A stretch of DNA of 40,724 nucleotides from a virus. Lineage: Duplodnaviria > Heunggongvirae > Uroviricota > Caudoviricetes. The DNA is taken from the IMG/VR virus record IMGVR_UViG_2565956726_000012, positions 1 through 40,724 of that record. One strand, 5' to 3'. Shown here in pieces: positions 1-25,049 of the stretch (its first letter is position 1; each line of letters starts with the position of its first letter). Both the position numbers and the translations under genes were made by a program. The notes under the pieces were generated by a model, which worked only from the letters and a program-made list of their open reading frames with translations, did no database searches and was not told where the DNA came from.

Positions 1-516
1 ATGAAATTTAAAAAATGTCTTCTGCCTGTGGTAATGTTAGCGTCATTCACTCTGGCAGGATGCCAGTCAAATGCTGATGATCATGCCGCCGATGTTTATC
101 AAACCGATCAACTGAATACCAAACAAGAAACTAAAACCGTTAATATTATTTCCATTCTTCCCGCAAAAGTTGCCGTAGACAACTCCCAAAATAAACGAAA
201 CGCACAAGCCTTCGGCGCGCTTATTGGTGCAGTCGCTGGCGGTGTTATTGGCCACAACGTCGGGTCTGGCAGCAATTCCGGAACGACGGCAGGTGCAGTT
301 GGCGGCGGAGCTGTTGGCGCGGCAGCGGGTTCTATGGTGAATGATAAAACCTTAGTGGAAGGTGTTTCTCTAACGTATAAGGAAGGCACCAAAGTGTATA
401 CCTCCACCCAGGTGGGTAAAGAGTGCCAGTTTACGACAGGTTTAGCCGTTGTTATTACCACGACGTATAACGAAACGCGTATTCAGCCAAATACCAAATG
501 TCCTGAAAAGAGCTAA
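1..516 (+). CDS. Outer-membrane lipoprotein with glycine-zipper (SlyB/YcfJ-like) segment; probable host flank
   Basis: Signal peptide with lipobox LAGC; Gly/Ala-rich stretch GALIGAVAGGVIGHNVG; ATG sits exactly at the window edge so the true start could lie upstream. Confidence 0.6.
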   Translation: MKFKKCLLPVVMLASFTLAGCQSNADDHAADVYQTDQLNTKQETKTVNIISILPAKVAVDNSQNKRNAQAFGALIGAVAGGVIGHNVGSGSNSGTTAGAVGGGAVGAAAGSMVNDKTLVEGVSLTYKEGTKVYTSTQVGKECQFTTGLAVVITTTYNETRIQPNTKCPEKS

Positions 517-531
517 TAATCAGGAGGAGTC

Positions 532-1071
532 ATGAAGAAAGTTTTTCTTTGCGCCATCTTAGCTTCCTTAAGCTATCCGGCTATCGCCTCATCATTGCAG
601 GATCAACTCTCTGCTGTCGCAGAAGCGGAACAGCAAGGTAAAAATGAAGAGCAAAGGCAGCATGACGAATGGGTCGCGGAGCGCAACAGGGAAATCCAGC
701 AAGAGAAGCAACGTCGCGCAAACGCCCAGGCCGCCGCTAACAAAAGAGCGACAACGGCAGCGGCAAATAAGAAAGCTCGTCAGGATAAACTGGACGCCGA
801 AGCCTCTGCGGACAAAAAACGCGATCAAAGTTATCAAGATGAGCTACGCAGCTTAGAGATTCAGAAACAAAAACTGGCGCTGGCGAAAGAAGAAGCCCGC
901 GTTAAGCGAGAAAACGAATTTATCGATCAGGAACTGAAGCACAAAGCTGCGCAAACCGATGTGGTGCAATCTGAAGCTGACGCAAACAGGAATATGACTG
1001 AGGGCGGTCGAGATCTGATGAAAAGCGTGGGCAAAGCAGAAGAGAACAAATCGGACAGCTGGTTTAATTAA
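532..1071 (+). CDS. Secreted charged coiled-coil protein (hypothetical); probable host flank
   Basis: AGGAGG RBS 5 nt upstream of ATG 532; N-terminal signal peptide; K/E/Q/A-rich low-complexity body. Confidence 0.5.
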   Translation: MKKVFLCAILASLSYPAIASSLQDQLSAVAEAEQQGKNEEQRQHDEWVAERNREIQQEKQRRANAQAAANKRATTAAANKKARQDKLDAEASADKKRDQSYQDELRSLEIQKQKLALAKEEARVKRENEFIDQELKHKAAQTDVVQSEADANRNMTEGGRDLMKSVGKAEENKSDSWFN

Positions 1072-2697: not shown

Positions 2698-3088
2698 CGT
2701 CTTTTCTCCCCGGAATTAACTCGCGTGGATTATCGGAACGGTGATAGAGCCAGATGCCAATACGCACGGCGACAATTGCTGACACGAATGCGCCTGCAGA
2801 GAAAACAATCCCTTTTTCAAAAGAGTCCTGCGTGATGGTAGGGATCAGGCTGGCTATGCCGATAAGAATTGATGCTGCTGGTTTGTAAAAGAGAAGGCCG
2901 CAAAGAAAGCTGAGCATCGACAGGAGCACCCGGCGACGGATGGGGTACTCTACTGCAGAGGTAACAAAAATTACCGCCCCAGCCAAAGCCCCTAAAGCAA
3001 CCTCCGGAGGGACACCTGCAATAACCGCAGCAAGAGAACTAACACTAAGCCACTGATTTGAAGTTTCATTGGTTAGTTGGAATGACAT
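2684..3088 (-). CDS. Putative holin
   Basis: 134 aa, multiple hydrophobic helices, charged C-terminus; first gene of lysis cassette immediately after tailspike. Confidence 0.55.
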   Translation of the reverse strand: MSFQLTNETSNQWLSVSSLAAVIAGVPPEVALGALAGAVIFVTSAVEYPIRRRVLLSMLSFLCGLLFYKPAASILIGIASLIPTITQDSFEKGIVFSAGAFVSAIVAVRIGIWLYHRSDNPRELIPGRKDDGNA

Positions 3089-3160
3089 AACGAAACCCGT
3101 TTATTTGCAAACACCCTGCTTCAGGAAAAGTATACCGCGCAACAACACACCATTTACGGT

Positions 3161-5623
3161 TCAATTCCCTGTTAATTGCAAAACTTGCTCTTCCAGCTTT
3201 TTAACCCTGCGTCTCATCATCGCAGATTCCAGAATCAGAGCCTCTTCATAACGGATACCGTAACATTCACCAGCCTCGACGGCTTCGCGTACCAGAACCT
3301 TTGTCTGTATAAGTGGGTAAACTCCTGCAGAATGCTCTTCTTCCGTCACATCCCTGTATTCTGCCGGGGCCTCATTCCACTTGTCATAACAGATAAATGC
3401 CAGTCGTGACACATCTATGCCTTCATTCTGAAATACACTGATAACATGCTGCGCAACTGCACCAAAGTGCCATCTTGCTCCGTCTTTACCTTTCACTTCG
3501 ATCCTGTCAAGGTACTGGTATGAAACCCATTCCACTCTTTCCCATGCGTCCAGTATTTTCTCATCAATAACCTCTGGAGCAGTCTTGAAACGCGCATCGG
3601 ACAGCACCGTAAACGCTGACTGGGTAAATCCCCCCGACCATGCACGACCAGCCAACCCAAGAGAATAAGTATTCGTTGTCGATGGTGTCATGGCTGAATC
3701 AGAAAACTGTATATATTCTGAATTTCCAGTAGATATTCGAATATTTCCATTTATTAGCGACATAGTGCCTTTAGTATTATCACTATTGAATAATTTCAAT
3801 TGCGAACTTATACCGCCTCCCACAGCCAGAGATACATCGCCTTCAGCAAGCATTCTGAATTTATCTGCAGAAACAAGCGTCTGGTTAGCAAGGTTAAAAT
3901 ATTTAACCCACCATTCAAAACGCCCTGACATAGTCCCAACGTACTGACCAAGCGCAGGGACGTGAACAACATTGCTATTTGTAGTGCCGTCTATACTGGA
4001 AATACCAGTCACCGCTGATGCAGAACTCAGAATATTATTTCTGTCACCCGGATGTTTAATTTCAACAAAGTTCCTGATACACCCTTCCTCGAAGGTAACC
4101 ACGCCGGAAGAACTATACATGGGGAATATTGACGCATAATTACTGCGTGCAGCATCTAAGAAACGAATGGTTGTAGATGTCTGCAGATCTCCTGATTCAT
4201 TTTTCCCATCACACCCAGTCATTAGAATATTACTGGCAATATTATTATTTCCCTGAACGGTGACGCCGTGCGCCTGCTTTGCGTCCGATTCAGAGTAATC
4301 AACCAGCACATCCGAAATCAGGTTACCAGTCCCCTTGCCAACAACTACTGCGGCGTATTTTGGGTTGTTAGCCATTACACTGCTAATGATATTATTCGTT
4401 GGGGCAGTTTCCGTCTCAGTTCCATTGTAAACAACGTGCTGACACTCTTCACCAATAACATTGCTGACAATGTTATATTTTGCTGCTGTTTTAAGTTCCA
4501 CTGCACCAAACTGAGGATAATTTCTGGCTATCACACCATCAATTAGCGTATTTTGCGATGAATCAAAAAGCACACAACCTGCTTTTTTATTATTTGCGAA
4601 CCCTAAATACTCTCCTCTTATATCTCTAACAATGTAACCTGACGGAATACCATTATCCGGATAAGCGATCAAGCTAAATCCTGGTCCTCGCGTATTTGTA
4701 AATCTGATATTTTTAACCGATACATCATGGCCACCTGAAAATGACACCTGGTGTCCCTGCACACTATCATCTGATTTATTTCCCATAATTGTTAGCGTAC
4801 TAAGCATGCCACCATCGGGCATGTTAAAAACCAGATGATTACCATCTCTGTCATACTGTTTTATCGTTCCCCCACCTGTTCCGTACAAGCCACAACGTGA
4901 AAGAGAAACTAAAGATGTATTGAATACCCCTTCCGGAACAAAAACACTGCTAAACGAATGTAATGATTTTGTAAAAGCATCCTTGTTATCATTTAAGATT
5001 CCATTTTGAGCTCCAAAATCCTTAATGCTGACACCATCACGCATCTTATCCTGGAACGTTCTGTATACCGCTCCAGAACCATACTGAATAAACCAACCAA
5101 AACCACCAATAACTCCGGCGATTGCAGCATCGACATAATTACGCATTGAGCGATTATTTACAGCGTCCTGCTCAAGTGATGGATCGGCAAGGTTAGATAT
5201 TCTGTTTTGCTTTGCATCGTAATATTTTGCAAGCAAAGATGGTTTCATCAATGCACGTCTGAACCACCCAAAACATCGCTGGATCAGCATCGTCAGGTAG
5301 TCAAATGCATCCTCATGAACTTCGGGGAAAAATTTTCCCTGATTGCGAAGATCAGTCTCCTGCACCACATCAAGCACACGCTCTATCGTGATTCGCCAGC
5401 CAGCAGCAAGCGGCGACGGAAGAACCACTGCACCGCCACTATAAGTTCCCGCCCCTGTTACCGTATAACCAGCATCCAGCACTAGTTTTGTAACGTTACC
5501 GTTAAGGTCAGACACCTGAACAACCAGGTCGGATTTTTTGAAAATACGGAAGGTATACGGAAATGATGTCGTAACGCCGTTACCTGTGTATTCGTTGTGG
5601 TCAACTTCGGTTGAGACCGTCAT
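3161..5623 (-). CDS. Tailspike/tail fiber with T7 gp17-like N-terminal adaptor domain, central beta-helix-type region and C-terminal intramolecular chaperone (peptidase S74) domain
   Basis: N-terminus NEYTGNGVTTSFPYTFRIFKKSDLVVQV resembles T7-type fiber N-termini; C-terminal SDARFK motif followed by a coiled-coil tail typical of self-cleaving chaperone domains; GGAG RBS. Confidence 0.8.
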   Translation of the reverse strand: MTVSTEVDHNEYTGNGVTTSFPYTFRIFKKSDLVVQVSDLNGNVTKLVLDAGYTVTGAGTYSGGAVVLPSPLAAGWRITIERVLDVVQETDLRNQGKFFPEVHEDAFDYLTMLIQRCFGWFRRALMKPSLLAKYYDAKQNRISNLADPSLEQDAVNNRSMRNYVDAAIAGVIGGFGWFIQYGSGAVYRTFQDKMRDGVSIKDFGAQNGILNDNKDAFTKSLHSFSSVFVPEGVFNTSLVSLSRCGLYGTGGGTIKQYDRDGNHLVFNMPDGGMLSTLTIMGNKSDDSVQGHQVSFSGGHDVSVKNIRFTNTRGPGFSLIAYPDNGIPSGYIVRDIRGEYLGFANNKKAGCVLFDSSQNTLIDGVIARNYPQFGAVELKTAAKYNIVSNVIGEECQHVVYNGTETETAPTNNIISSVMANNPKYAAVVVGKGTGNLISDVLVDYSESDAKQAHGVTVQGNNNIASNILMTGCDGKNESGDLQTSTTIRFLDAARSNYASIFPMYSSSGVVTFEEGCIRNFVEIKHPGDRNNILSSASAVTGISSIDGTTNSNVVHVPALGQYVGTMSGRFEWWVKYFNLANQTLVSADKFRMLAEGDVSLAVGGGISSQLKLFNSDNTKGTMSLINGNIRISTGNSEYIQFSDSAMTPSTTNTYSLGLAGRAWSGGFTQSAFTVLSDARFKTAPEVIDEKILDAWERVEWVSYQYLDRIEVKGKDGARWHFGAVAQHVISVFQNEGIDVSRLAFICYDKWNEAPAEYRDVTEEEHSAGVYPLIQTKVLVREAVEAGECYGIRYEEALILESAMMRRRVKKLEEQVLQLTGN

Positions 5624-5727
5624 GTTAAATCTCCAGATAGTCGCAGCACCCGTTGCGCCGCATATCTGGTTATTCTATTACCCAAAAAACCATATATGGA
5701 TAGAAAGACTGTGAATATGAATAGATA

Positions 5728-5742
5728 TTACCTTTCAGGTAA
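5728..5742. promoter_or_regulatory. Operator copy A (TTACCTTTCAGGTAA) of the ATTACC-N5-GGTAAT family
   Basis: Perfect 17-bp palindrome ATTACCTTTCAGGTAAT; lies between minus-strand TTGAAA -35-like hexamer and the tailspike gene, and upstream of the plus-strand island. Confidence 0.6.
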
Positions 5743-5779
5743 TTTTCAAAACGTGCTGGATAGCAAACAAATTATTTGA

Positions 5780-5799
5780 TACTGTATAAATATACAGTT
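5780..5799. promoter_or_regulatory. LexA (SOS) box TACTGTATAAATATACAGTT
   Basis: CTGT-N8-ACAG with AT-rich spacer and TA flanks, near-consensus; 20 bp upstream of ATG 5820. Confidence 0.7.
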
Positions 5800-5819
5800 A
5801 TTGCATGGAGAAGATTAAG

Positions 5820-6077
5820 ATGCAGCAGTATCACTATCCACTGGAAGAGGGATTTACCGAAAGGATTCACACGCCGGGAGGCGTCAGGTCACTGGTGGAG
5901 GGATCGCACTTGATGAAATTACTCCGGGATCTCGATAAGGATGGATTTAATGTCGATGGCCCACTTGCCGAACTGACTGCACTGATTAACTACGTCACCA
6001 GCTCACAGATGTCTATGCAGGATCTGCAAACACATCTCGACTATTGTGCCGAACAATTACGAAAACAAACCAGATAA
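5820..6077 (+). CDS. Small standalone antirepressor C-terminal (ANT/KilAC-like) domain protein; candidate SOS-inducible antirepressor
   Basis: 85 aa; clearly alignable to the C-terminus of the downstream Bro-N antirepressor (GVRSLVEGSHLMKLLRDLDKDGFNVDG..AELT vs GVLGLTENSLLMNLLNQLQDDGHDVSG..AELT); GGAG RBS before ATG 5820; LexA box upstream. Confidence 0.55.
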   Translation: MQQYHYPLEEGFTERIHTPGGVRSLVEGSHLMKLLRDLDKDGFNVDGPLAELTALINYVTSSQMSMQDLQTHLDYCAEQLRKQTR

Positions 6078-6080
6078 GGT

Positions 6081-6123
6081 TTGCAATTACCAAGTGAAGT
6101 GCTTATATTTACCTTTGCGGTAA
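6081..6123 (+). promoter_or_regulatory. Sigma70-like promoter (TTGCAA-17-TATATT) with operator copy B (TTACCTTTGCGGTAA) abutting the -10
   Basis: Near-consensus -35/-10 with 17-bp spacer; operator starts at last base of -10. Confidence 0.6.
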
Positions 6124-6236
6124 ATTTACATCGCACTCCTCTTGTGCCATAGTAATCGGGCACTGGCAAAATCCAGTGCCGGGATTGGCGTCCCGAGTTA
6201 CTAAGTGGCGCATACCACGCCAGACGTGGTTTTTTT
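6116..6236 (+). ncRNA. Putative structured small RNA or leader element (c4/sar-like antirepressor control RNA) ending in an intrinsic terminator
   Basis: No ORF; hairpins GGCACTGG/CCAGTGCC (6159-6180) and CGGGA/TCCCG (6180-6195); terminator at 6214-6236; lies between a strong promoter and the ant gene. Confidence 0.35.
6214..6236 (+). terminator. Rho-independent terminator upstream of ant
   Basis: Stem ACCACG/CGTGGT, loop CCAGA, followed by 7 T. Confidence 0.65.
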
Positions 6237-6392
6237 ATGCGTTAAGCACAGCTATATCCGAATTATGGTGGGCTGGGCAGGGGTCCGAAAGGACGCCGGT
6301 ACCACTTAGGCCGGTACGCCAACCTTGTCCAGTTCACCACCAGTAATTGGCGTTGCGGTGGTGATTAAAATCACTAAGTGGAGATAACCACC

Positions 6393-7103
6393 ATGGCTAA
6401 TGCTCAAACTGCCATCTTCAAATTTGAATCTGTTAACCCTATCCGTTCCATCATTATCGATGGCCAACCATGGTTTGTAGCCCAAGACGTTTGTAGTGCG
6501 CTGCGCATCCAAAACGTCACCCAAGCACTTGAAAAACTGGATGATGATGAAAGGTCTATGTTCAACATAGGGCATGAATATCGTGCAATTTTTGACAGCC
6601 GAGTAAAAGAGATCAACATCATCTCCGAGTCAGGCCTCTACACACTGATCCTCCGCTGCCGCGACGCAGTGACACCGGGCACTATCCCCTACCGCTTTCG
6701 TAAATGGGTTACAGGTGAGGTTCTTCCTCAGATCCGCCGCACCGGAAGTTACATTAAAAACTCGCTCCCGCAGGAAGAACGCATAAAGATGGTTGCCGAC
6801 CAGGTTGCAAACGCCACAGCATCAGCAGTGATGCAGGCAATGAAGATAGAGAACAAAACCTACAGCGCCCCGCTGAAGCCCGGCTACCGCAGCCTGATTC
6901 ATTCTCCGTCTGGTGTTCTCGGCCTGACGGAGAACTCATTGCTGATGAATCTGCTGAATCAGTTGCAGGACGACGGGCATGATGTATCGGGCGCGGCGGC
7001 GGAGCTGACCACCATGTTTTGCTACATCGTTGGTGTGAGCAAATGCCTGCGTGATATCCAGACGCACGCGGAGTACATCAACGACAAGGCAGGGTTCTTC
7101 TGA
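6393..7103 (+). CDS. ant: Antirepressor, Bro-N N-terminal domain plus ANT-like C-terminal domain
   Basis: Bro-N-like N-terminus (FKFESVNPIRSIIIDGQPWFVAQDVCSALRI); GGAG RBS 9 nt before ATG 6393; the GTG at 6378 in the track is an unlikely start. Confidence 0.8.
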   Translation: MANAQTAIFKFESVNPIRSIIIDGQPWFVAQDVCSALRIQNVTQALEKLDDDERSMFNIGHEYRAIFDSRVKEINIISESGLYTLILRCRDAVTPGTIPYRFRKWVTGEVLPQIRRTGSYIKNSLPQEERIKMVADQVANATASAVMQAMKIENKTYSAPLKPGYRSLIHSPSGVLGLTENSLLMNLLNQLQDDGHDVSGAAAELTTMFCYIVGVSKCLRDIQTHAEYINDKAGFF

Positions 7104-7148
7104 CAGAACGGCGGCACAGGGATGTGCCTTTAAATAATTCTGTACAGA

Positions 7149-7191
7149 TTGCAGACCGGGGGTGAATAGCGTACTATTACCTCAAGGGTAA
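7149..7191 (+). promoter_or_regulatory. Sigma70-like promoter (TTGCAG-17-TACTAT) with operator copy I (TTACCTCAAGGGTAA)
   Basis: Same -10-abutting operator architecture as copy B. Confidence 0.55.
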
Positions 7192-7251
7192 ACGGATTGG
7201 TTTCATTTTTATTAATCCGTGTAATGAACTTATGAGATATGAGGTAATGTC

Positions 7252-7431
7252 ATGCGAAACGAAAAATTGCAGATGCGTAGAGCGCAAGCTGCCGCAAGAC
7301 GTTCTTTCAATGGAAGCGTAGAGTACGTAAAAGTTACTATGGCAAAAGATCACGCAAGTCGCGTATCCCGCGCTTTCTTTGATTCTCGTAACAATAAGGA
7401 AAATTATGAGTTCGTCTGCGTCGCAGAATGA
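7252..7431 (+). CDS. Small basic protein (59 aa), candidate antitoxin-like partner
   Basis: GAGGTAA RBS 5 nt before ATG 7252; Arg/Lys-rich; 3-prime end overlaps start of next gene by 26 nt; below the 60-aa cut-off of the ORF track. Confidence 0.35.
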   Translation: MRNEKLQMRRAQAAARRSFNGSVEYVKVTMAKDHASRVSRAFFDSRNNKENYEFVCVAE

Positions 7432-7951
7432 TAAAAATCAAATTGTCAGATATAAGGGTCGAGTATTGCATACGCAAAATTTCTCGGCCCTTTGTGCATC
7501 TGATCTTGAGCTGAAGAAAGTATCTGATGCCTTTGCCCAGTATTGGAAAACGGGATACCATCCATCTCTTGGTAAAGATGCTGCATTTGCTCGTCCGACA
7601 GAAATGCTTAAACTAAATGTCAGGCATGCTCATGTCGATAACCAAGACTATATTCCAGAAGATAGTGATAAAAAACACACTGGTAAAAAATCATCTTGGG
7701 ATGCATGGAAAAATATAGCGTCTGTACAAGTAAAATGCATACCAACAAGTGATTGCTTTTTAGTTTATTCGGTAAATCACAATCGTGATGCGCTGGTTAT
7801 GTTTTTTGTTGACGCAGATGCCCACAACATAACTGAGCAAGAAGAGTTTAAAGAGGCAGCAATCACTATCAGTTATCAATTCTTTGAGAAAACAAAAACA
7901 GAACCAATGCCTTTAGAAGAAGATCTTTTTTCTGATAAATGGAAGGAATAA
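7406..7951 (+). CDS. Hypothetical protein with possible YafO-like toxin N-terminal region plus acidic C-terminal extension
   Basis: AAGGAAA RBS before ATG 7406; segment GKDAAFARPTEMLKLNVRHAHVD recalls a YafO-family motif from memory only; AT-rich codon usage; own promoter and terminator. Confidence 0.45.
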   Translation: MSSSASQNDKNQIVRYKGRVLHTQNFSALCASDLELKKVSDAFAQYWKTGYHPSLGKDAAFARPTEMLKLNVRHAHVDNQDYIPEDSDKKHTGKKSSWDAWKNIASVQVKCIPTSDCFLVYSVNHNRDALVMFFVDADAHNITEQEEFKEAAITISYQFFEKTKTEPMPLEEDLFSDKWKE

Positions 7952-8243: not shown

Positions 8244-8804
8244 CTACATTGATATATGATTCATAAAGTAGCTTAAAGATTTACTTCCCAGAAAAGAAAT
8301 TTCTTTTCCTGGATATGTCGCAATAATTGAGCATGACTTATCCCCGTTAGAGGTAACAAATCCTGAATAACCTACTTGTTCTTTACCATTTTGTTGCTTG
8401 GCTAAAAAGTAGAGGTAGCTTATCTTTTTGCCCTCTGGGTAAAACTCTGCCAAACCAGTATCGGTGATTGAATATTTTATTCTCCCGCCTTGAGTAACGT
8501 TTTCCATCTCAAGTTTAGCTATGTCTTTTCTGTTGTATTCAGCATTGATTTTCCTTTTGAAATCAATGTTGTTTTCAAATGAGTAGGAAGCAACAGTCTG
8601 AATAGATGGGAACACGTTTATCTGGATGCCTCCACAGTCGGCACAGGTATAAAGGTATGAATCAGATGGAATCCCCATAAAAGAAAACTGAGTTACCTTA
8701 AATTTATCGCTATCTCCAAAGTATTGAAGTTCGCATTTAACATTTTTCCCTGCAAAAGAAAATGCAGACATCAATATTGAAACAAAAAATATAATTGCCT
8801 TCAT
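8244..8804 (-). CDS. AT-rich secreted protein (cargo gene), possible superinfection-exclusion or conversion function
   Basis: Signal peptide MKAIIFFVSILMSAFSFAG; markedly lower GC than neighbours; sits after the ejection-protein genes and before the tailspike. Confidence 0.6.
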   Translation of the reverse strand: MKAIIFFVSILMSAFSFAGKNVKCELQYFGDSDKFKVTQFSFMGIPSDSYLYTCADCGGIQINVFPSIQTVASYSFENNIDFKRKINAEYNRKDIAKLEMENVTQGGRIKYSITDTGLAEFYPEGKKISYLYFLAKQQNGKEQVGYSGFVTSNGDKSCSIIATYPGKEISFLGSKSLSYFMNHISM

Positions 8805-8806
8805 TA

Positions 8807-11359
8807 TTATTTACCTAGCATGAACTGCGATGGTGGGATCAGAAAGTCGTTACCCTGCTCACGCTCAACACGGCGCTGATAACGCTCAAGAGAGCCTGGG
8901 TCAAGGGCATCTTGTATCCGGTTCAATATTAAACCATTCATCGCCGTACGAAGCCAGAACACGTTGAGGAATGGCGTATTGTCAAGTGCCGTGCGATACC
9001 AGTCACCCAAATCTGCATCCCCTCTCGTGGTCTGCTGGAGCAGCGTGATAATGCTGTCAGCGTTCGATGCTGCTGGCCCCATTAGCGACGTAACCGGCCC
9101 GGCCCCCATGCGGTTGACCTCGCCAAACATGAAGTCACCCAAGATGCCAAGACCGCCCCCCTGAGATGCGGCTGCGAGAAACGTCTTGGCATCTGCCGGG
9201 CGTGGTGTTTGCCCTTTCAGCATGAGTTTTGACTGCATGGAGATATAACCAAACATAGTCGCCCAGACAAAGAGGTTTGCAGCACCAAGGAAAGCCCCCT
9301 TCCCGTTACGTAGCAGCGCATTCGTCAGCGATCCGGTTTTCGACTCACCAAGCCCAGCAGGAATATAACCACGCCCGAATACTTCGCGTCCTAGTACGTT
9401 CTGCATGAAGCTTGCAGTGAACGATTTGTACTGACCAGCGAATCGTATTGCTTCCCCAGCCACCGTTCCTGGCACCGTGCCCATCTTCATAAACGCCTGC
9501 GTGCGATCGCCAGGCTCTGACATGGCGATATTCAGGCGGTCAAGGATGTAGCCGCGCAACTGCCCTTCCAATTGATCGCGTGCGTCAGCGATAGCGCGCT
9601 GCGTTGGTTTGATCCCCTTACTCTCTACATAACCGGCAATCACTTCGTCAGGCACGCCGCGGATGCCGCTGGTCGTCATGAACTTACGACCTTCGCTATC
9701 GGCCATGTCCATGTTGCGAAAAATTTCCCACTCACGTTCGCCAATACCGTGCAGATCCAGCACGCGTCGCAGGTCTTCCGGTAGCCGCGCATGAGACTGG
9801 TCAGCATTCTTTGCAAGCCAGTTGGTTATCATCATGGCGTTGCTGTTGCGACCGCTCTCGGTCCAGAAGTTCATGAGGTTGTACTTAAAGAAAAGCTGCT
9901 GCGCGCGACCAAGCTTTCCATTCAGCGTGTCATCACCAGATATGCGCCGGATGATTTCCTGCGTCATGGAGTCGGAATAAACTCCGATAGAGGAAAGGAT
10001 CTCTTTCTGCTCCGCGCTGTTGTAACGCGTGAAGCGGCCTCTCATAGCACCAAGCAACGCCTGCATAAAATTCTGCCCTTGGTAGCGCATCTCGGTAGCG
10101 GCGATAGGCACGTCGTTAAACGATGAGATTACCGCGCCACCAAGTTGGCTCATACGCAACCAGCCGCGTACAGCCGCCGACGCATTGGCCCAGCCTACGC
10201 TGCCAGGAATATTTAGCGAGCCGTCAACCTGCGGCATTACGGTACGGTTAATGCGACGCACCTTCGTCATGTAGTCAGCCAACGCTGCCGGTCTTCCGGA
10301 TTTGCTGATATCTTCAGCAATGGCGTCCGTCAGGTACTTAAACATGTTCTGTGGGTTAGTGCCCAGTACGCGCATCATGCCCGTTGTGCGGGCAGCGCTG
10401 TTTAAGCCACCAAACAGCGCTTCTCGCAGGCTGCCGGTGCCGAATTGCTGGTTGTACTCGTGCCACGAGATACCATCTTTGAAGTGCAAAATTCGCTCTT
10501 GGCTGGCGCGTTTAGCTGCGTTCGCCGATCCCTTAAAGCCATTCATCCAATCGGGCTTTTCAGATGTAAGATGCACGCCGGAAGCCAGCCCGTTATAAAT
10601 GTTACGCATGAACTGCTCGCGGTCAGCCACGCCGTCAAAAGTGCGCTCATCAAGGCGCGGGAGAATAGCATTTCGCCATGCTTCATAACCTGCGGCGCGG
10701 ATCTTCATGATGTCGTGTGACTGGCGCACTATATAGCCCGGCTCTTTGCGTATCCATGCCCCGGCGCGGTTCTCATCAATGCGCGCAGTTTCCTGCCATT
10801 TCATGATGATTTGTGCAGCGCTTACGGATTGCTTTGTCATACCGTCAGTTGACTGCCCGCGCCCTATGCGCCACATTGCATCGGCAATTTCCCGGTCATT
10901 GCTGCCGCTGGCGATGAATTGCACCAGCCCGGCACGGTCAAAATCGTAGTTGATACCGGAATGATACTTGCCGCGCAGTTGCGCCACCTCCGAAGATACC
11001 GACCGGCGGGCGCCGGTACGCGCATCGTTGCGGCCAACCAGCATTGCTTCAAGCCCGATATCCGGGCGGTCTTTCCAGATAGTACGAAGCTCTCTAAGTC
11101 GTTGTGCGGCAATACGGGCGTTGATTGCCTTATTGCGAGCCTCAATCTGTTTTGCCAGCATATCGGCATTGCTCAGTTCTTCCGCTGCGCGCATCGCGGC
11201 CTCTTCCAGAGACAGCGCCTCATTGGTCGCCAGAATTCGCCTAGTGGTGTCGTTCATGTCACGCACCAGCGACTCCATCTCATCGGAAGAAAGCTCGCGA
11301 CCAGCGGCAGCATTTACACTGCGCTCGCACTGCGTCAAAAATTCGTTTGCTGCCATCAC
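8807..11359 (-). CDS. Large internal virion/ejection protein
   Basis: 850 aa; in operon after the transglycosylase-domain protein; overlapping start/stop with neighbours. Confidence 0.65.
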   Translation of the reverse strand: MMAANEFLTQCERSVNAAAGRELSSDEMESLVRDMNDTTRRILATNEALSLEEAAMRAAEELSNADMLAKQIEARNKAINARIAAQRLRELRTIWKDRPDIGLEAMLVGRNDARTGARRSVSSEVAQLRGKYHSGINYDFDRAGLVQFIASGSNDREIADAMWRIGRGQSTDGMTKQSVSAAQIIMKWQETARIDENRAGAWIRKEPGYIVRQSHDIMKIRAAGYEAWRNAILPRLDERTFDGVADREQFMRNIYNGLASGVHLTSEKPDWMNGFKGSANAAKRASQERILHFKDGISWHEYNQQFGTGSLREALFGGLNSAARTTGMMRVLGTNPQNMFKYLTDAIAEDISKSGRPAALADYMTKVRRINRTVMPQVDGSLNIPGSVGWANASAAVRGWLRMSQLGGAVISSFNDVPIAATEMRYQGQNFMQALLGAMRGRFTRYNSAEQKEILSSIGVYSDSMTQEIIRRISGDDTLNGKLGRAQQLFFKYNLMNFWTESGRNSNAMMITNWLAKNADQSHARLPEDLRRVLDLHGIGEREWEIFRNMDMADSEGRKFMTTSGIRGVPDEVIAGYVESKGIKPTQRAIADARDQLEGQLRGYILDRLNIAMSEPGDRTQAFMKMGTVPGTVAGEAIRFAGQYKSFTASFMQNVLGREVFGRGYIPAGLGESKTGSLTNALLRNGKGAFLGAANLFVWATMFGYISMQSKLMLKGQTPRPADAKTFLAAASQGGGLGILGDFMFGEVNRMGAGPVTSLMGPAASNADSIITLLQQTTRGDADLGDWYRTALDNTPFLNVFWLRTAMNGLILNRIQDALDPGSLERYQRRVEREQGNDFLIPPSQFMLGK

Positions 11360-13053
11360 ATCCCCCGGTTAATCATACAGGCGGCAAATGCCCGGAAAGC
11401 GTTGCTCATGCTATTGTCGCTGGCGTCGGCACGAATATCATTGAGTTTCTGGCGCAACGTGGTCGCAAGATCAGGGTTATCGACAGCGATATCGTCAAGC
11501 AGGGCGTTACTCAGGTTGAGCTCGTTATCAAGGTCTGCAGCGGCAGCGGTAATTTCATGATCTGCCTTTTGCGTTTCTTGATAAACCCGATCGGCTGTTT
11601 CGCTTGCTGGGCGAGCCGTTTCATCAACCTGCCGTGCCGGGTTCTGTATGCGATGGATGGCGCGTTCACGCAGTGCCGGTTTGTGCAGTTCATAGAAGGG
11701 CTCAACATCTGGGCTACGTCCTTCCATCATGTGTGCCAGCGCAGCGCGATACGCCTGCTGGTTCACGTTCCAGTCAGCATCCCTGATGGCGCTTGCGGCA
11801 GTGCGAACTGCGCCAGCGACCGGCGACATCTGCATGCCGTCCAGGATCTGCTGCGCACGCTCGGAAATGGTGACTTTCAGGTCGTCGGGGATCTCGCCGC
11901 GGGAAATCTGAGACTGGCGCCAGCGCGCCTGCTCTGCTGTCGCGTTCTGCTCCAGCGATGTGTTGATCTCCTGATTGCGTGCAGCGATGGCGTCTTTCTC
12001 GGCCTGAATCTCTTTCAGTGCCCTAGAGCGCGCATCCTTAAACTTCATCCGCTGCCCCTGATACTTTTTGGTGCGCTGCTGCAGCGTCGCATCAAGCGAG
12101 TCAGCATGACGTTGATTAGCCGCAAGCTCGGCACGCAGGTCGGCAACGTTACCGATCTGACCGCTCTGTAATTCCTGCTGGCGCGCCATATAGTCAGGAA
12201 CCACGTCGTCATAAGCCCGGCTGTATGCGTAGCTCTCCGCTTCACTGGAAATGGCCGCCGCCAGATCTGCGTTAGCGCCAACCTCAGGGATATTCACGCC
12301 CGCCGGAATGTTGTCAGGCGTTATCACCGGGGTTGGCTGCGCATCGCCAGAAAACGCCGGGGACTCTCCCGTTGCAGCATCGGGAACGCGACGCGGTCGC
12401 ACGATATCGGCGATAAGGCCGCCGCCGGCATGCATTAGACCGCCAGCCATCGTGTTAAAGAAAGTACTTTCCAACGCGTTGCTATAGGTGAAGTCGTCAC
12501 CTTCCGCCGCCGCTGCCAGCCCGGTAAGCGGCACGGTCACCACCGCCTGCGCTGCCCCCATGCGTGCACCAGCAACAAATCGCTCGCCAAATCGGCCAAG
12601 CACAGAAGCCGCCTTTGCTTCTCCAGCGAACGGAACCAGCGCCAGCGCCACGTTACCAGGATCTGCCATTGAACCAGCTAGGCTGGCTGCGAAATTAAGC
12701 GGCGTGGCTACCCATCCGCTCGGTGCCGACATCGCGATCTGCTGGCGTGCCAGAGAATCTTTGCGTTCGGCAATAACATGATCGAGAAAAGCCTGCGTAA
12801 CGCCAGAATCTGGCACGTTTATGCTCTTTACGCCGTACTGCTTCAGGAGCTCATCCGCTTCCTGCTTGCTGATAACTGTAGAGTTTGGGTCATTCGCCAG
12901 CGAGTCGGCCTGCGCAAAGCGGTAGCCGGACATGACCGGCCCCTCTTCAAATCCCTGCTTAAGGGAAGAAAGCAGCGATTCACCAAGCCCTGCTGGCGCG
13001 TTGCCAATTGGCTGGTTAATTCCCTGTCCCGGATCATCTGTGTAAATTGGCAT
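11356..13053 (-). CDS. Internal virion/ejection protein
   Basis: 565 aa; Ala/Gln-rich predicted coiled regions; operon position between two large internal proteins. Confidence 0.6.
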   Translation of the reverse strand: MPIYTDDPGQGINQPIGNAPAGLGESLLSSLKQGFEEGPVMSGYRFAQADSLANDPNSTVISKQEADELLKQYGVKSINVPDSGVTQAFLDHVIAERKDSLARQQIAMSAPSGWVATPLNFAASLAGSMADPGNVALALVPFAGEAKAASVLGRFGERFVAGARMGAAQAVVTVPLTGLAAAAEGDDFTYSNALESTFFNTMAGGLMHAGGGLIADIVRPRRVPDAATGESPAFSGDAQPTPVITPDNIPAGVNIPEVGANADLAAAISSEAESYAYSRAYDDVVPDYMARQQELQSGQIGNVADLRAELAANQRHADSLDATLQQRTKKYQGQRMKFKDARSRALKEIQAEKDAIAARNQEINTSLEQNATAEQARWRQSQISRGEIPDDLKVTISERAQQILDGMQMSPVAGAVRTAASAIRDADWNVNQQAYRAALAHMMEGRSPDVEPFYELHKPALRERAIHRIQNPARQVDETARPASETADRVYQETQKADHEITAAAADLDNELNLSNALLDDIAVDNPDLATTLRQKLNDIRADASDNSMSNAFRAFAACMINRGM

Positions 13054-13054
13054 G

Positions 13055-15676
13055 TTATCGTCCTGATTGCTGGCCGTTCTGGAAAATGTTAATCAGGTTG
13101 TCGCGCTGACTTTCTGCGCTGTATTCCTTAGACTGTCCGGGAGTATATTTCACCGGAGTATCAATGAACTTGGTAATGCTGTTCCATACTGATCGGTTGG
13201 TTGTTCCCAGTTTCGCCAGATCGTTGAACGGCACCGTAATCGGGTTGCCGTCGGCACCGTTGACGATCAGCCCGTTGAGCATCAGGGTAAGTCCTGTTTC
13301 GTCGCTGTTGGTAACCCACTGCGCATTATCACGAATGCGGGAGATACTCTGCTCACGGTTGACCTCATCAGGTAGCCTTGGGTCACCAATAAGCGGCATA
13401 ATCTGATCTGCTGACAGGTTTTTCAGATACGCATTGGCACCATCGTTAACGTCACGAATATCTATCCCTGCACGATTAGGTAGCCGCCAAGTGCCATTGG
13501 TCTGGTACTGCTCGCCGAGGATGTCCTGATACGCCTGTTTTGCTGCATCAGACGCCGACATTCCGCGCTGCATGTTGATGTAAGTAAGTCGTTTTCCCTG
13601 CTCGTTGAAGTTATTCCACACGGCAGTGCCACCAGGCTGAACAACCATCGTGCCAGCAAAATCTTTCGATTGGTCATTCCATGACGAGTCGGCGCTATCC
13701 GCGTCGGTTTTCTCAAGACTGCCGCGTAAGTCAGCAGTTTTAACGCTACGGTTTTGCCAGAGCGCATTTGCCGCGCGCGGGTTCTCGGTAGCCATGACAA
13801 CCTGCAACGCAGGATAAGCGCTCTTCTGAACCTGCTGCATCACCTGATCCGAGTATTTGCCGAACGACTGCGCCACCGACTGAATGGCCTTAACGCTAGA
13901 TTCCTGCGTGTTGTCAATACGCTGCAGTACATCATTGACCATGGACTCCGGTAAAACTTTTTTGCTCATTATCCCCAGGCGGTCTTTTTCAGACTGTATG
14001 CGAGAAACTAGGTATTCACCAGATGAAGGGTCATTCAGGTACTGCTGGAATGCAGCCTGCACAACCGGAGAGTTTTGTTGCAGCCATGCCCCCGGATCCG
14101 CTTCCCGCGCCTTCAGTACCTGCCCAAGCTTGACCTTTGCCGATGCATAAAGCTCTGCTTTGTATTTAAAGTCAGGGTCGTTTTCCTGCGGTGCCATTGC
14201 CTGCACGGCGGCGGTACCCTGCTGGACGTTGCCCTGCATAATGGTCTGATAAACAGGTTGTAGCGTCATTGCCTGCTGGTATTGCTGGAAGGTTTTTTCC
14301 ATCTGCAGGCGCTCGGCAGGCGCTGCCTGAAGCGGCATAACGGCGGCCCATTCGTGCGCTGAAATAGGCGTCACCTGCTTACCGGCCTCAATTTTGGATA
14401 GGTCGTCCTGCATTCGACTCTGTAGCGCAACGCGACCGGCTGAAGCCTGCATGTCGTACATGCCAGCAACCTTGCTCATCATCTGCGACTTTTTGTCCGG
14501 ACTCATGGCGTTCCAGAATGGCTGTGCGATGAGGTTTTCCATCGTCGCAGATCCAGGAATAGCTCCAGCACTGCCAGTTACTTTTGCCACATAATTGCGC
14601 GTCTCGTCGTATGGGATAGCTGCGGCAAACTGGGCGTTACTGACTTCGCCTGTGCGCGGATCGCCAATCTGTTTAATCCAGCCGTCAACCTTTCCTGGGC
14701 CAGCGTTATAGGCAGCTACTGCCAGAACCGGGTTATTGTCGTATTTCTTCATCTGCGCGCCGAAATAAGCTTGCCCCAAGCGGGCATTATAGCGCGGGTC
14801 ATTCAACCATTTATCGCGGTCCCACGGCACGCCAGCAAGGCGGGAAGCTTCGGGGCCAGTATCTTCCGTCACCTGCGCTACGCCAACAGCGCCTTTTGGC
14901 GACACCAGAGGTGTTCCGTCCTTTCCGTACTGATTTCCGCCACTCTCCTGCCAGATTATTGCAGAGAATAACTGCGCCTCACTCGGTGTATCGGTTACCT
15001 CAATCTTGCCGTTCGGACCCATGATCTGTTGATACATCGGCACATACCACGCCTCCGCCGCACCGTTCGCGGCATTCTCGCGCCACGAAACCCAGTTCTG
15101 TTCGATCTCTTCCTGACTCTGGCCGTGGGCTTCGCCGTAAGCGATGATGCTATGATATGCCTTCAATCCTGCCTGGTTTGCCATTGTCGGGTTACGGAAC
15201 TGCATCGATAGGTTTTTTAGTGTCGCATCCTGCATATCCGCCTCATACTGGCGAACCTGTCCTATTTCGTACCTCCCGGCCTGCGTAGTGAACTGAATGC
15301 GCTGCTGCTGCGCCTGCTGCATGAAAGCATTACGAGCCTGTTCATCCGGCAGCGACACAGCCAGTTGTTCGACCTGAGCATCAAACTGCTGCGTATACTC
15401 CTGACCTTTTCCAATAGCATTTTTCCCTTTCAGGTTAAGCAATCCTGTTTCAGGATTATTCAGCAGATCACTGCTTATCTGACTGAGGTTAAGAGATGCC
15501 TCCTGAGCCAGAGCGATATTGGCACGCTGTTTTGCCTGACCAAAAACATCAATTGCCTCTGCCCCTGCCCGAACAAAAGCATCACCAATACCTGGCTGAG
15601 AAAACGTCTGCAAGCCTGCTGACTGAACTCCACGGCTCTGAACCTGACGGCCGGATACTGTTGGTACGACTGGCAT
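13055..15676 (-). CDS. Internal virion protein with lytic transglycosylase (SLT) domain
   Basis: SLT motifs WQESGGNQ, GVAQV, AAYNAGPG; GGAGG RBS before ATG 15676 (TAATG overlap with upstream stop); track ORF to 15751 is an N-terminal over-extension. Confidence 0.8.
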   Translation of the reverse strand: MPVVPTVSGRQVQSRGVQSAGLQTFSQPGIGDAFVRAGAEAIDVFGQAKQRANIALAQEASLNLSQISSDLLNNPETGLLNLKGKNAIGKGQEYTQQFDAQVEQLAVSLPDEQARNAFMQQAQQQRIQFTTQAGRYEIGQVRQYEADMQDATLKNLSMQFRNPTMANQAGLKAYHSIIAYGEAHGQSQEEIEQNWVSWRENAANGAAEAWYVPMYQQIMGPNGKIEVTDTPSEAQLFSAIIWQESGGNQYGKDGTPLVSPKGAVGVAQVTEDTGPEASRLAGVPWDRDKWLNDPRYNARLGQAYFGAQMKKYDNNPVLAVAAYNAGPGKVDGWIKQIGDPRTGEVSNAQFAAAIPYDETRNYVAKVTGSAGAIPGSATMENLIAQPFWNAMSPDKKSQMMSKVAGMYDMQASAGRVALQSRMQDDLSKIEAGKQVTPISAHEWAAVMPLQAAPAERLQMEKTFQQYQQAMTLQPVYQTIMQGNVQQGTAAVQAMAPQENDPDFKYKAELYASAKVKLGQVLKAREADPGAWLQQNSPVVQAAFQQYLNDPSSGEYLVSRIQSEKDRLGIMSKKVLPESMVNDVLQRIDNTQESSVKAIQSVAQSFGKYSDQVMQQVQKSAYPALQVVMATENPRAANALWQNRSVKTADLRGSLEKTDADSADSSWNDQSKDFAGTMVVQPGGTAVWNNFNEQGKRLTYINMQRGMSASDAAKQAYQDILGEQYQTNGTWRLPNRAGIDIRDVNDGANAYLKNLSADQIMPLIGDPRLPDEVNREQSISRIRDNAQWVTNSDETGLTLMLNGLIVNGADGNPITVPFNDLAKLGTTNRSVWNSITKFIDTPVKYTPGQSKEYSAESQRDNLINIFQNGQQSGR

Positions 15677-16221
15677 TATAATCCTCCGGGTAATCTGGTT
15701 CCTGCTGCTGCCCCGATTGGCGCAGGGGTGCTTTGAGTAAACGGACTCCACGTCCCACCAAACATCTGGTACGCACCGTATGCCTTCAGAGGCGCAGTGA
15801 GCAATGTTGTTGCTGCTCCCACATTCCCCTGTTTACGGGCTGAACTGGCTTCTGCTTTATAGTTGGCAGCCTGAACCTGATAACCGTAAGCCTCGCGTTG
15901 CGCGTTATTCACCGTCGTCAGAGAATCAAGAGCGCCAAACTGGGCAGTGTCGCCAAATATATCCAGCGCGTTACCTGTAGATAAATCAGCGCCGGTAGCC
16001 CCCATTGTCGCCGCCTGTGTACCAAGCCGCTGTCGGGTCTCTCTGCGCCGTTGCTCAGCTTCAGCGTTACCTCTGTTTATTGCATCATTTGCCTGAGCTG
16101 TGGCTATATCTGCGTTCGCTTCTGCAACCTTCGAGGCATACTTTCCCTGTTGGTACTGGGTGTATGCCTGAATGCCACTCATGGCGAGCATTGCGCCACC
16201 AGCAATAACCGGATCGCACAT
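15676..16221 (-). CDS. Internal virion protein (T7 gp14-like position)
   Basis: 181 aa; N-terminal hydrophobic segment then Ala/Gln-rich region; operon position. Confidence 0.5.
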   Translation of the reverse strand: MCDPVIAGGAMLAMSGIQAYTQYQQGKYASKVAEANADIATAQANDAINRGNAEAEQRRRETRQRLGTQAATMGATGADLSTGNALDIFGDTAQFGALDSLTTVNNAQREAYGYQVQAANYKAEASSARKQGNVGAATTLLTAPLKAYGAYQMFGGTWSPFTQSTPAPIGAAAGTRLPGGL

Positions 16222-24972: not shown

Positions 24973-25049
24973 GTGGCATTAGCTCAGTCGGACAGAGCAA
25001 CCGCCTTCTAAGCGGTTGGTCGCAGGTTCGAATCCTGCATGCCACGCCA
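24973..25049 (+). tRNA. tRNA-Arg (anticodon UCU), phage-borne
   Basis: 77 nt cloverleaf: 7-bp acceptor stem GTGGCAT/ATGCCAC, D-arm GCTC..GAGC, anticodon loop CTTCTAA, T-arm GCAGG-TTCGAAT-CCTGC, discriminator G plus CCA; closely resembles argU-type tRNA. Confidence 0.9.

Follow-up and report, generated by a model that had tools for sequence, protein, structure and literature searches.

A probable K5-lyase tailspike with an S74 intramolecular chaperone in an epsilon15-like Escherichia coli prophage

Our analysis of a 40,724-nucleotide stretch of phage DNA (the window) indicates that one of its genes very probably encodes a receptor-destroying K5-lyase tailspike with an S74 chaperone, carried by an epsilon15/phiV10-like prophage and similar in architecture to the E. 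coli prophage protein ElmA. The tailspike consists of three modules, which are an N-terminal attachment domain, a lyase module and a C-terminal S74 chaperone (Table 1).

Table 1. Features of the tailspike gene and its surroundings in the window
Feature	Residues	Window position	Strand	Basis
Tailspike CDS		3161..5623	-	ORF list and translation; RefSeq CDS identical or 99.8% identical
N-terminal virion (tail-hub) attachment domain, epsilon15/phiV10 type	aa 1-197	5033..5623	-	spike homology
K5 (heparosan) lyase module, predicted	aa 198-674	3602..5032	-	PDB 2x3h/9vvr matches, AlphaFold, Foldseek
Putative catalytic residues	E376 (4496-4498), K378 (4490-4492), Y399 (4427-4429)	4427..4498	-	KflA alignment
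Peptidase_S74 intramolecular chaperone, 16.9 kDa	aa 675-820	3164..3601	-	Pfam and structure matches
SDARFK motif with predicted dyad	Ser675 (3599-3601), Lys680 (3584-3586)	3584..3601	-	endoNF alignment
Exchangeable cassette, approximate extent		3060..5035	-	EC67 comparison and megablast match ends
Shine-Dalgarno GGAG, 7 nt upstream of the ATG		5631-5634	-	sequence read directly

The tailspike gene and its lyase module

The open reading frame is intact and encodes 820 aa, with an ATG start at 5621-5623, a stop codon at 3161-3163 and a predicted precursor mass of 89.7 kDa as computed from the sequence. An earlier note on this DNA had given its limits exactly but had not stated the strand; since the plus-strand translation of the same segment was riddled with stops, the gene lies on the minus strand. 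The 2463-nt coding sequence was found in RefSeq at full length and at least 99% identity in 68 complete E. coli genomes. The protein belongs to a cluster of 384 members, and alleles of 89-100% identity exist among cluster members and homologues. RefSeq labels it only as 'tail fiber domain-containing protein'; the cluster member names were likewise generic, and neither these names nor the supplement of one paper held an ElmA name, accession or primers. Because promoter and terminator counts in window 2900-6500 were no higher than in shuffled sequence, we claim no transcription signal from that scan. A LexA box was noted at 5780-5799.

Comparisons of sequence and of predicted structure both related the central part of the protein to the K5 lyase KflA. 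PDB entry 2x3h (KflA) matched residues 199-675 without gaps (E = 2.3e-184), the lyase domain being 58-60% identical to the crystallised protein, and entry 9vvr matched the tailspike with E = 5.5e-225. The KflA-type protein P0021 (632 aa) was 58% identical over aa 201-817 (~600 aligned residues), and homologues in the lytic phages UE-S5a/b and UE-M6 are named 'K5 lyase'. When the AlphaFold model was searched with Foldseek, 2x3h ranked first (E = 1.1e-44, TMt 0.74), followed by other beta-helix tailspikes. Within the module, a right-handed, single-stranded parallel beta-helix occupies about aa 225-520 and a C-terminal stalk comes after it; in KflA this stalk intertwines in the trimer, and the tailspike has a corresponding one. 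Model pLDDT was 80-96 over about aa 200-520, where regular short strands were seen, while the monomer model had low confidence (pLDDT < 50) at aa 85-195 and 565-600.

These results bear out the earlier suggestion of a beta-helix depolymerase, with the enzymatic activity itself predicted from homology. The Gly/Asn/Ser/Thr-richness that had been noted for the central 500 aa was also recovered, these four residues making up 37.8% of aa 176-675, compared with 14.4% of the C-terminal domain and 26.9% of the N-terminal one. Of the checks that had been proposed, structure prediction led to 2x3h for the beta-helix and to 3gud/3gw6 for the chaperone; the HMM search succeeded for the S74 domain, whereas generic Pfam beta-helix and pectate-lyase models stayed below their cut-offs (PF13229, 19.1 bits vs 25.9; PF12708, 13.6 vs 27). 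We did not count these sub-threshold scores against the fold, because the sequence and structure matches to 2x3h were decisive.

The putative catalytic residues E376, K378 and Y399 align with KflA E206, K208 and Y229 (residue types checked), which we take to be the catalytic residues reported by Thompson et al. in 2010. Among lyase-type homologues down to 40% identity, E376 and K378 were present in 16/16 and Y399 in 15/16, and none of the three positions was conserved in spikes with other enzymatic modules. The sequence evidence supports a capsule-directed lyase (beta-eliminase) and not an O-antigen hydrolase, and we infer that the substrate is the K5 heparosan capsule, cleaved by beta-eliminative chemistry.

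The C-terminal chaperone and its predicted release

The C-terminal part of roughly 150 aa that the earlier note had delimited by SDARFK measures 146 aa, and its assignment as an S74 intramolecular chaperone was confirmed at the level of homology. The Pfam model PF13884 matched with E = 1.4e-13 and 51.3 bits (cut-off 22), with aa 675-735 corresponding to profile positions 1-57 of 58. Structural entries matching the domain included 3gud (E = 3.5e-20), 3gw6 (1.5e-18), 6eu4, 7y5s and 4uw8; in the Foldseek search, 3gud scored a TMt of 0.85-0.87, and both 3gud and 3gw6 covered the domain. A terminal helix was predicted at aa 792-819 (pLDDT 83-90) and aligns with the C-terminal helix of solved chaperones. 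In those structures the C-terminal helices make a trimeric coiled coil (PMC4690869), in agreement with the coiled-coil end that had been read from the sequence.

A Ser-Lys dyad of S74 chaperones has been described (endoNF S911/K916; PMC8326128). Ser675 of the tailspike aligns with endoNF position 911 (an Ala in the crystallised S911A variant), and Lys680 aligns with K916. The SDARFK motif aligns with SDERHK of GA-1 gp12, so that the released GA-1 chaperone begins at the residue corresponding to Ser675, and the deposited 2x3h chain ends at a Ser aligned with Ser675. Both Ser675 and Lys680 were conserved in 16/16 lyase-type spikes and in 23/28 other aligned spikes. With the scissile bond position transferred from T5 pb1 and K1F (PMC4690869), we infer that the protein is a trimer and that its chaperone is released by autoproteolysis at Leu674-Ser675, which would leave a mature chain of 72.8 kDa (predicted) and free the 16.9-kDa chaperone. 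Arg660 was considered as the counterpart of endoNF R897 and T5 R1250. Because it is offset by one alignment column and is variable rather than conserved, we do not claim this equivalence.

The attachment domain, the exchangeable cassette and the prophage

The window represents the complete prophage of a temperate, epsilon15/phiV10-like podophage, integrated between guaA and yfgI. Its genes run in the order integrase, early genes, terminase, portal, capsid, ejection proteins, spike and a lysis cassette of holin-holin-GH19 endolysin-DUF2514, with the spike gene adjoining the lysis cassette just upstream. The modules from integrase to lysis are long intact reading frames, collinear with the annotated prophage of strain Ecol_AZ162, to which the prophage is 98.5% and the spike 99.8% identical. 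A siphovirus or lambda-like context, guessed from ORF sizes, was dropped because of the T7-gp14-family core protein, the Bbp16 cement protein and the epsilon15-type spike N-terminus. We also rejected the possibility that the window is the MLI109 prophage. Complete (100%) identity is limited to the spike, the prophage being mosaic and differing from MLI109 in window 8244-16217.

The N-terminal 165 residues of the tailspike are 70% identical to the epsilon15 spike and 68% to the phiV10 spike, and the attachment domain is 94-95% identical to that of several E. coli podophages. PDB entries 28lx/8ck1 matched this N-terminus in sequence and Foldseek searches. By this domain and by its position in an epsilon15-like genome, the protein is a tailspike of the epsilon15/phiV10 (Uetakevirus-like) type. 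Matches to many tail-fibre PHROGs were confined to aa 1-166, and in 493 E. coli genomes the match to the gene was limited to its first 110-615 nt. The conserved part is aa 1-197, common to prophages with different enzymatic modules. The product name of ElmA, 'eliminase', is also annotated on phage proteins that share only the N-terminus of the tailspike.

In near-isogenic prophages this position is taken by an endosialidase or by a different enzymatic module. Against the EC67 prophage, which has an endosialidase spike, protein identity was ~94% over aa 1-196 and fell after aa ~197, and DNA identity returned at about window 3060-3090; megablast matches in other genomes ended at nt 582-615 of the gene. 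The exchangeable cassette takes in, approximately, the enzymatic module with a chaperone of its own and the 3' intergenic region as far as the opening codons of the holin gene, and it has a GC content of 42.6% vs 49.6% for the whole window. The earlier statement that this gene usually defines host serotype specificity therefore held in so far as near-isogenic prophages swap enzymatic modules; since the target would be the K5 heparosan capsule, the specificity would concern the K-type and not the O-serotype.

Capsule association, proposed mechanism and known relatives

Strain Ecol_AZ162, the host of the closest prophage, carries the K5 capsule genes kfiA, kfiC and kfiD. A chimeric spike+kfiC query was run against 5,426 E. 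coli genomes. We counted kfiC in ~36 of ~69 spike-positive genomes, and in the remaining 5,357 it occurred in ~232 (odds ratio ~24, Fisher p ~1e-29); the overlap was calculated by setting the summed places against their union, and the counts ignore clonal relatedness. The spike thus shows strong enrichment among kfiC-positive strains. Of the genomes that carry it, about half are without kfiC, and one carrier that we examined has a K1 locus.

Such carriers would also fit a KflA-fold depolymerase with a substrate other than heparosan (another acidic capsule or an O-antigen), for which the 58% identity to the characterised KflA leaves room, and tailspike specificity can shift with few changes. 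We nevertheless consider a different substrate improbable. A published switch from a K5 to a K1 capsule in a lineage of K5 ancestry (PMC11488385) explains the K1 carriers. The KflA alignment runs through 477 residues without a gap, the putative catalytic residues are conserved, the enrichment in kfiC-positive genomes is strong, a K5 locus accompanies the closest prophage, and ElmA is an experimentally documented prophage K5 lyase with an S74-type chaperone. We give similarly little credence to the idea that the spike is kept in K1, kfiC-negative strains because it benefits the lysogen, either by stripping the heparosan capsule of competitors after spontaneous induction or by cleaving or binding unsulfated heparan-sulfate domains of the host epithelium, which are chemically identical to heparosan. 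An alternative for the spikes in K1 strains, which are at least 99% identical, is that they are a molecular fossil of a K5 ancestor.

It is very unlikely that the gene is left over from a defective prophage and, although its sequence is intact, is no longer expressed or built into virions and serves the cell in no way at present: the persistence of the spike in strains whose K1 capsule it should not recognise, the lack of an above-chance promoter in the scanned upstream region, and the Tn3/tet(A) insertions and truncated genes of the related MLI109 prophage point that way, but the window is intact from integrase to lysis and collinear with the Ecol_AZ162 prophage, the full-length gene is conserved across the 68 genomes and the large protein cluster, lyase activity has been reported in E. 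coli K5 cultures, and this proposal concerns the present use of the protein and not its identity.

For the K5-lyase tailspike, we propose the following mechanism. Three chains would assemble, with the S74 chaperone nucleating the trimer via its terminal helices and templating the intertwined stalk. Once the stalk has folded, the Ser675/Lys680 dyad would cut the Leu674-Ser675 bond and the 17-kDa chaperone would depart, so that a mature trimer of ~73-kDa chains would be held at the tail hub by aa 1-197. The beta-helix would then bind the K5 capsule, whose heparosan repeat is -4GlcA-beta1,4-GlcNAc-alpha1-, and cleave it by beta-elimination, in which E376, K378 and Y399 probably act as the catalytic residues. 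Capsule cleavage would allow the virion to tunnel to the outer membrane.

A K5-lyase tailspike of this kind is already known, and the earlier observation was correct but ordinary: K5 lyase tailspikes, their beta-helix structure and the self-cleaving chaperone have been described since 1996-2010, and the tailspike fits every testable feature. The gain is one of annotation, as the gene can now be named as a heparosan (K5) lyase tailspike of the ElmA type. This is relevant to capsule typing of ExPEC lineages, to phage or depolymerase therapy against K5 strains, and to the control of heparosan chain length in bioengineered-heparin production. In addition, some carriers now have a capsule that does not match the specificity of their spike, and this discrepancy could serve as a simple marker of past capsule switching.

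ElmA is a K5/heparosan lyase encoded by a prophage of E. coli K5. It has been included in a list of proteins that have a C-terminal intramolecular chaperone, and lyase activity in E. coli K5 cultures has been attributed to a gene of this kind. Legoux et al. reportedly described ElmA, from E. coli K5 strain SEBR 3282, in 1996 as a chromosomal N-acetyl-heparosan lyase or 'eliminase', and its length is presumably 820 aa, the same as that of the tailspike here. Its homology to KflA is said to be limited to the C-terminal three quarters (Clarke et al., in 2000), and the homology of the tailspike to KflA is confined in the same way. The tailspike appears to correspond to ElmA by architecture, host and annotation trail: it is prophage-encoded in E. 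coli, has the predicted K5 lyase with a C-terminal chaperone, and has an N-terminal domain to which the 'eliminase' label is attached; in these respects we saw no point in which the two differ.

KflA itself (coliphage K5A / K1-5 ORF46, 2x3h) shares the beta-helix, stalk and S74 chaperone, the Glu/Lys/Tyr positions and the cleavage-motif Ser in the alignment column of Ser675. It differs in its 30-aa SP6/K1E-type adapter-binding N-terminus (632 aa in total), where the tailspike has a 197-aa epsilon15-type domain, and it comes from a lytic phage, whereas the tailspike comes from a temperate prophage. The spikes of Kayfunavirus (843 aa; 9vvr), Kagunavirus (778 aa) and UE-S5/UE-M6 (784 aa) are 54-57% identical in enzymatic module and chaperone, but each has another N-terminal attachment domain, e.g. 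T7 tail-fibre PF03906 or PF18668. Judged by these homologies, virions of at least five types bear the putative K5-lyase cassette.

The chaperones of endoNF (3gw6), GA-1 gp12 (3gud) and T5 pb1 (4uw8) have in common with that of the tailspike a homologous C-terminal domain with a Ser-x4-Lys dyad and a terminal helix, placed directly after a trimeric beta-stalk. They are only 25-37% identical, follow unrelated passenger domains and, in endoNF and T5, use a neighbouring-chain Arg (R897 / R1250) with no clearly conserved tailspike counterpart. Finally, gp20 of Salmonella phage epsilon15 and the tailspike of E. coli phage phiV10 resemble the present protein in prophage type and in gene position ahead of the lysis genes, but their enzymatic modules act on O-antigens and have no relationship to the K5 lyase module.

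Enzymatic module and C-terminal chaperone of the tailspike

Interval 3161-5623, where an earlier note had placed a self-cleaving tailspike depolymerase, corresponded exactly to one ORF on the minus strand, which encodes 820 aa without interruption (N-terminus MTVSTEVDHNEY..., C-terminus ...EEQVLQLTGN*). Plus-strand coding was rejected, its translation being riddled with stops. The description in that note proved accurate, since ORF, motif position and composition all matched. The SDARFK motif starts at residue 675, so that the C-terminal piece said to measure roughly 150 aa has 146 aa, and the Gly/Asn/Ser/Thr-rich central 500 aa (residues 176-675) contain 37.8% of these residues vs 14.4% in the C-terminal piece.

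For the lyase module, two PDB entries led the sequence matches: 9vvr, a tail spike protein from a phage (E = 5.5e-225), and 2x3h, which is KflA, the K5 (heparosan) lyase tailspike of coliphage K5A. The 2x3h alignment ran without gaps across query residues 199-675 (E = 2.3e-184), and the deposited chain stops at the serine aligned with Ser675. Identity to a KflA-type protein of 632 aa was 58% over 600 residues. The AlphaFold model was confident over the beta-helix (pLDDT 80-96), and its closest structural match was again 2x3h (E = 1.1e-44, TMt 0.74); further beta-helix tailspikes ranked next. A profile search for pectate-lyase-like folds had been proposed; the generic Pfam beta-helix models scored below threshold only, whereas the fold itself was borne out by the 2x3h sequence and structure matches, and we therefore attribute the low scores to weak profiles rather than to a missing fold. 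Positions 206, 208 and 229 of KflA, reportedly its proposed catalytic residues (Thompson et al. 2010), are occupied in the KflA-type protein by E, K and Y and correspond to E376, K378 and Y399 of the tailspike. Among 16 lyase-type homologues, with identity down to 40%, E376 and K378 were invariant and Y399 was present in 15, whereas none of the three was conserved in spikes bearing other enzymatic modules. By homology, the tailspike is predicted to have lyase activity.

The Peptidase_S74 profile PF13884 matched with E = 1.4e-13 and 51 bits (Pfam cut-off 22), as expected from the chaperone proposed earlier. Solved chaperones of GA-1 gp12 (3gud, E = 3.5e-20), endosialidase NF (3gw6, 1.5e-18), AS12 gp42 and T5 pb1 also matched this domain; its model superposed on 3gud with TMt 0.85-0.87 and includes a long helix at 792-819. 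In the alignment, Ser675 corresponds to endoNF position 911 (Ala in the S911A crystal construct) and Lys680 to Lys916. This Ser-Lys dyad is needed for self-cleavage (PMC8326128), and in T5 pb1 and K1F the bond that is cut is the one just before the serine (PMC4690869). Cleavage of the tailspike is accordingly predicted between Leu674 and Ser675, with computed masses of 72.8 kDa for the mature chain and 16.9 kDa for the fragment. Homology suggests that the protein would undergo both autoproteolysis and trimerisation.

Positions of the tailspike domains and neighbouring features
Feature	Position	Strand	Basis
epsilon15-type virion-attachment domain	residues 1-197	-	identity to epsilon15/phiV10, PHROG matches
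K5 lyase module	residues ~198-674	-	PDB sequence matches, KflA identity, AlphaFold model
Peptidase_S74 / intramolecular chaperone domain	residues 675-820	-	Pfam, PDB matches, superposition of the AlphaFold model on 3gud
GGAG at Shine-Dalgarno position	7 nt upstream of tailspike ATG	-	sequence
LexA/SOS box AACTGTATATTTATACAGTA	5780-5799		near-perfect, one position off the consensus; 0.02 chance matches expected
90-aa ORF, no Pfam match	5805-6077	+	LexA/SOS box 5 nt upstream
Bro-N (antirepressor-like) protein	6378-7103	+	
YafO-toxin-like protein	7379-7951	+	
Integrase	39474-40724		ORF/annotation comparison
Host gene yfgI	532-1071		
Host gene yfgH	1-516		
EC67 spike region	EC67 locus 3393-6512, counterpart of window 3060-5035		comparison of prophages

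Modular exchange within the prophage family

The window holds a temperate podophage in its entirety. After the integrase come early genes, terminase, portal, capsid, ejection proteins and a small accessory region, followed by the spike and a holin-holin-GH19 endolysin-DUF2514 block. In strain Ecol_AZ162, a 98.5%-identical prophage sits between guaA and yfgI. A tRNA-Arg (anticodon TCT, which reads the rare AGA codon) lies between the terminase and portal genes at 24973-25049. Divergent to the tailspike gene runs a LexA-box gene set (5805-7951), which has the appearance of an antirepressor operon under SOS control that would serve prophage induction.

Residues 1-165 of the tailspike were 70% identical to the epsilon15 and 68% to the phiV10 tailspike, and matches to many tail-fibre PHROGs were confined to this N-terminal part. 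Among 5,426 complete E. coli genomes, 68 had full-length copies of the spike gene (100% identical in MLI109), and about 425 further genomes matched only its first 110-615 nt, to which endosialidase, GH28-like, SGNH or peptidase-G2 modules are fused. In the near-isogenic prophage of strain EC67, which aligns to 91% of window 1-25000 (97.9% identical), a 1,039-aa endosialidase replaces the K5 lyase. The two spike proteins are ~94% identical up to residue 196 and diverge beyond, their chaperones being merely 30% identical; DNA identity returns near window 3060-3090, which places the breakpoints at about residue 197 and within the holin gene 5' end. Enzymatic module and chaperone thus travel together as a ~2-kb cassette (GC 42.6% vs 49.6% for the window), each module bringing its own S74 chaperone. 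In lytic phages, at least five further attachment domains carry the same lyase and chaperone cassette.

Window 8244-16217, an ejection/internal-protein region with ORFs of 186, 850, 565 and 898 aa, one of them an SLT transglycosylase-domain protein per the Ecol_AZ162 annotation, did not match the MLI109 prophage by megablast. Since the spikes are identical, the family is mosaic beyond the spike. In MLI109 (NZ_CP117008.1 1411000-1431000), a resistance island (Tn3-family/tet(A), carrying pemIK) splits the early region and truncates replication protein P, so this copy is probably defective.

Association with K5 hosts and relation to ElmA

The kps locus of Ecol_AZ162 (NZ_CP019015.1 2680000-2720000) carries the K5 capsule genes kfiA, kfiC and kfiD. 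Co-occurrence was probed with a chimera of lyase module (1,100 nt) and kfiC (900 nt) as query, which found 338 places in 301 genomes, and hence ~36-37 genomes with both. Set against totals of ~69 genomes positive for the spike and ~268 for kfiC, this gives an odds ratio of ~24 (Fisher p ~1e-29, clonal relatedness ignored). The kfiC gene is missing from about half of the ~69 carriers, so that spike specificity is out of step with the present host capsule. One of these, WP3-W18-CRE-03 (NZ_AP021963.1 805000-830000), has at the same site, by yghD, a K1 (neu) locus for a polysialic-acid capsule with neuB, neuC and polysialyltransferase, a pattern consistent with the recombinational K5-to-K1 capsule switch published for ST1193, which descends from K5 CC14 (PMC11488385). 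In the K5 probiotic Nissle 1917 (NZ_CP007799.1), the best place of the chimeric query was kfiC rather than the lyase module, with a second place also present; a second Nissle assembly had one place only, kfiC.

Phage proteins sharing only the N-terminus of this tailspike are annotated as 'eliminase', the product name of ElmA. ElmA likewise has 820 aa and reportedly resembles KflA in its C-terminal part only, just as this tailspike does. Likened in this way by description and annotation, the tailspike is very likely ElmA. The overall interpretation in the earlier note is upheld by the S74 domain and the beta-helix K5 lyase homology, and the sequence evidence supports a sharper identity, namely a tailspike of the ElmA type, a heparosan (K5 capsule) lyase that carries an S74 intramolecular chaperone and is encoded by an epsilon15-like prophage. 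ElmA figures in the literature as the K5/heparosan lyase that E. coli K5 owes to a prophage, is counted among the four protein groups bearing an S74-type intramolecular chaperone, and has been employed for heparosan trimming in engineered strains; an ElmA-type K5 lyase tailspike with such a chaperone is therefore biology already known.
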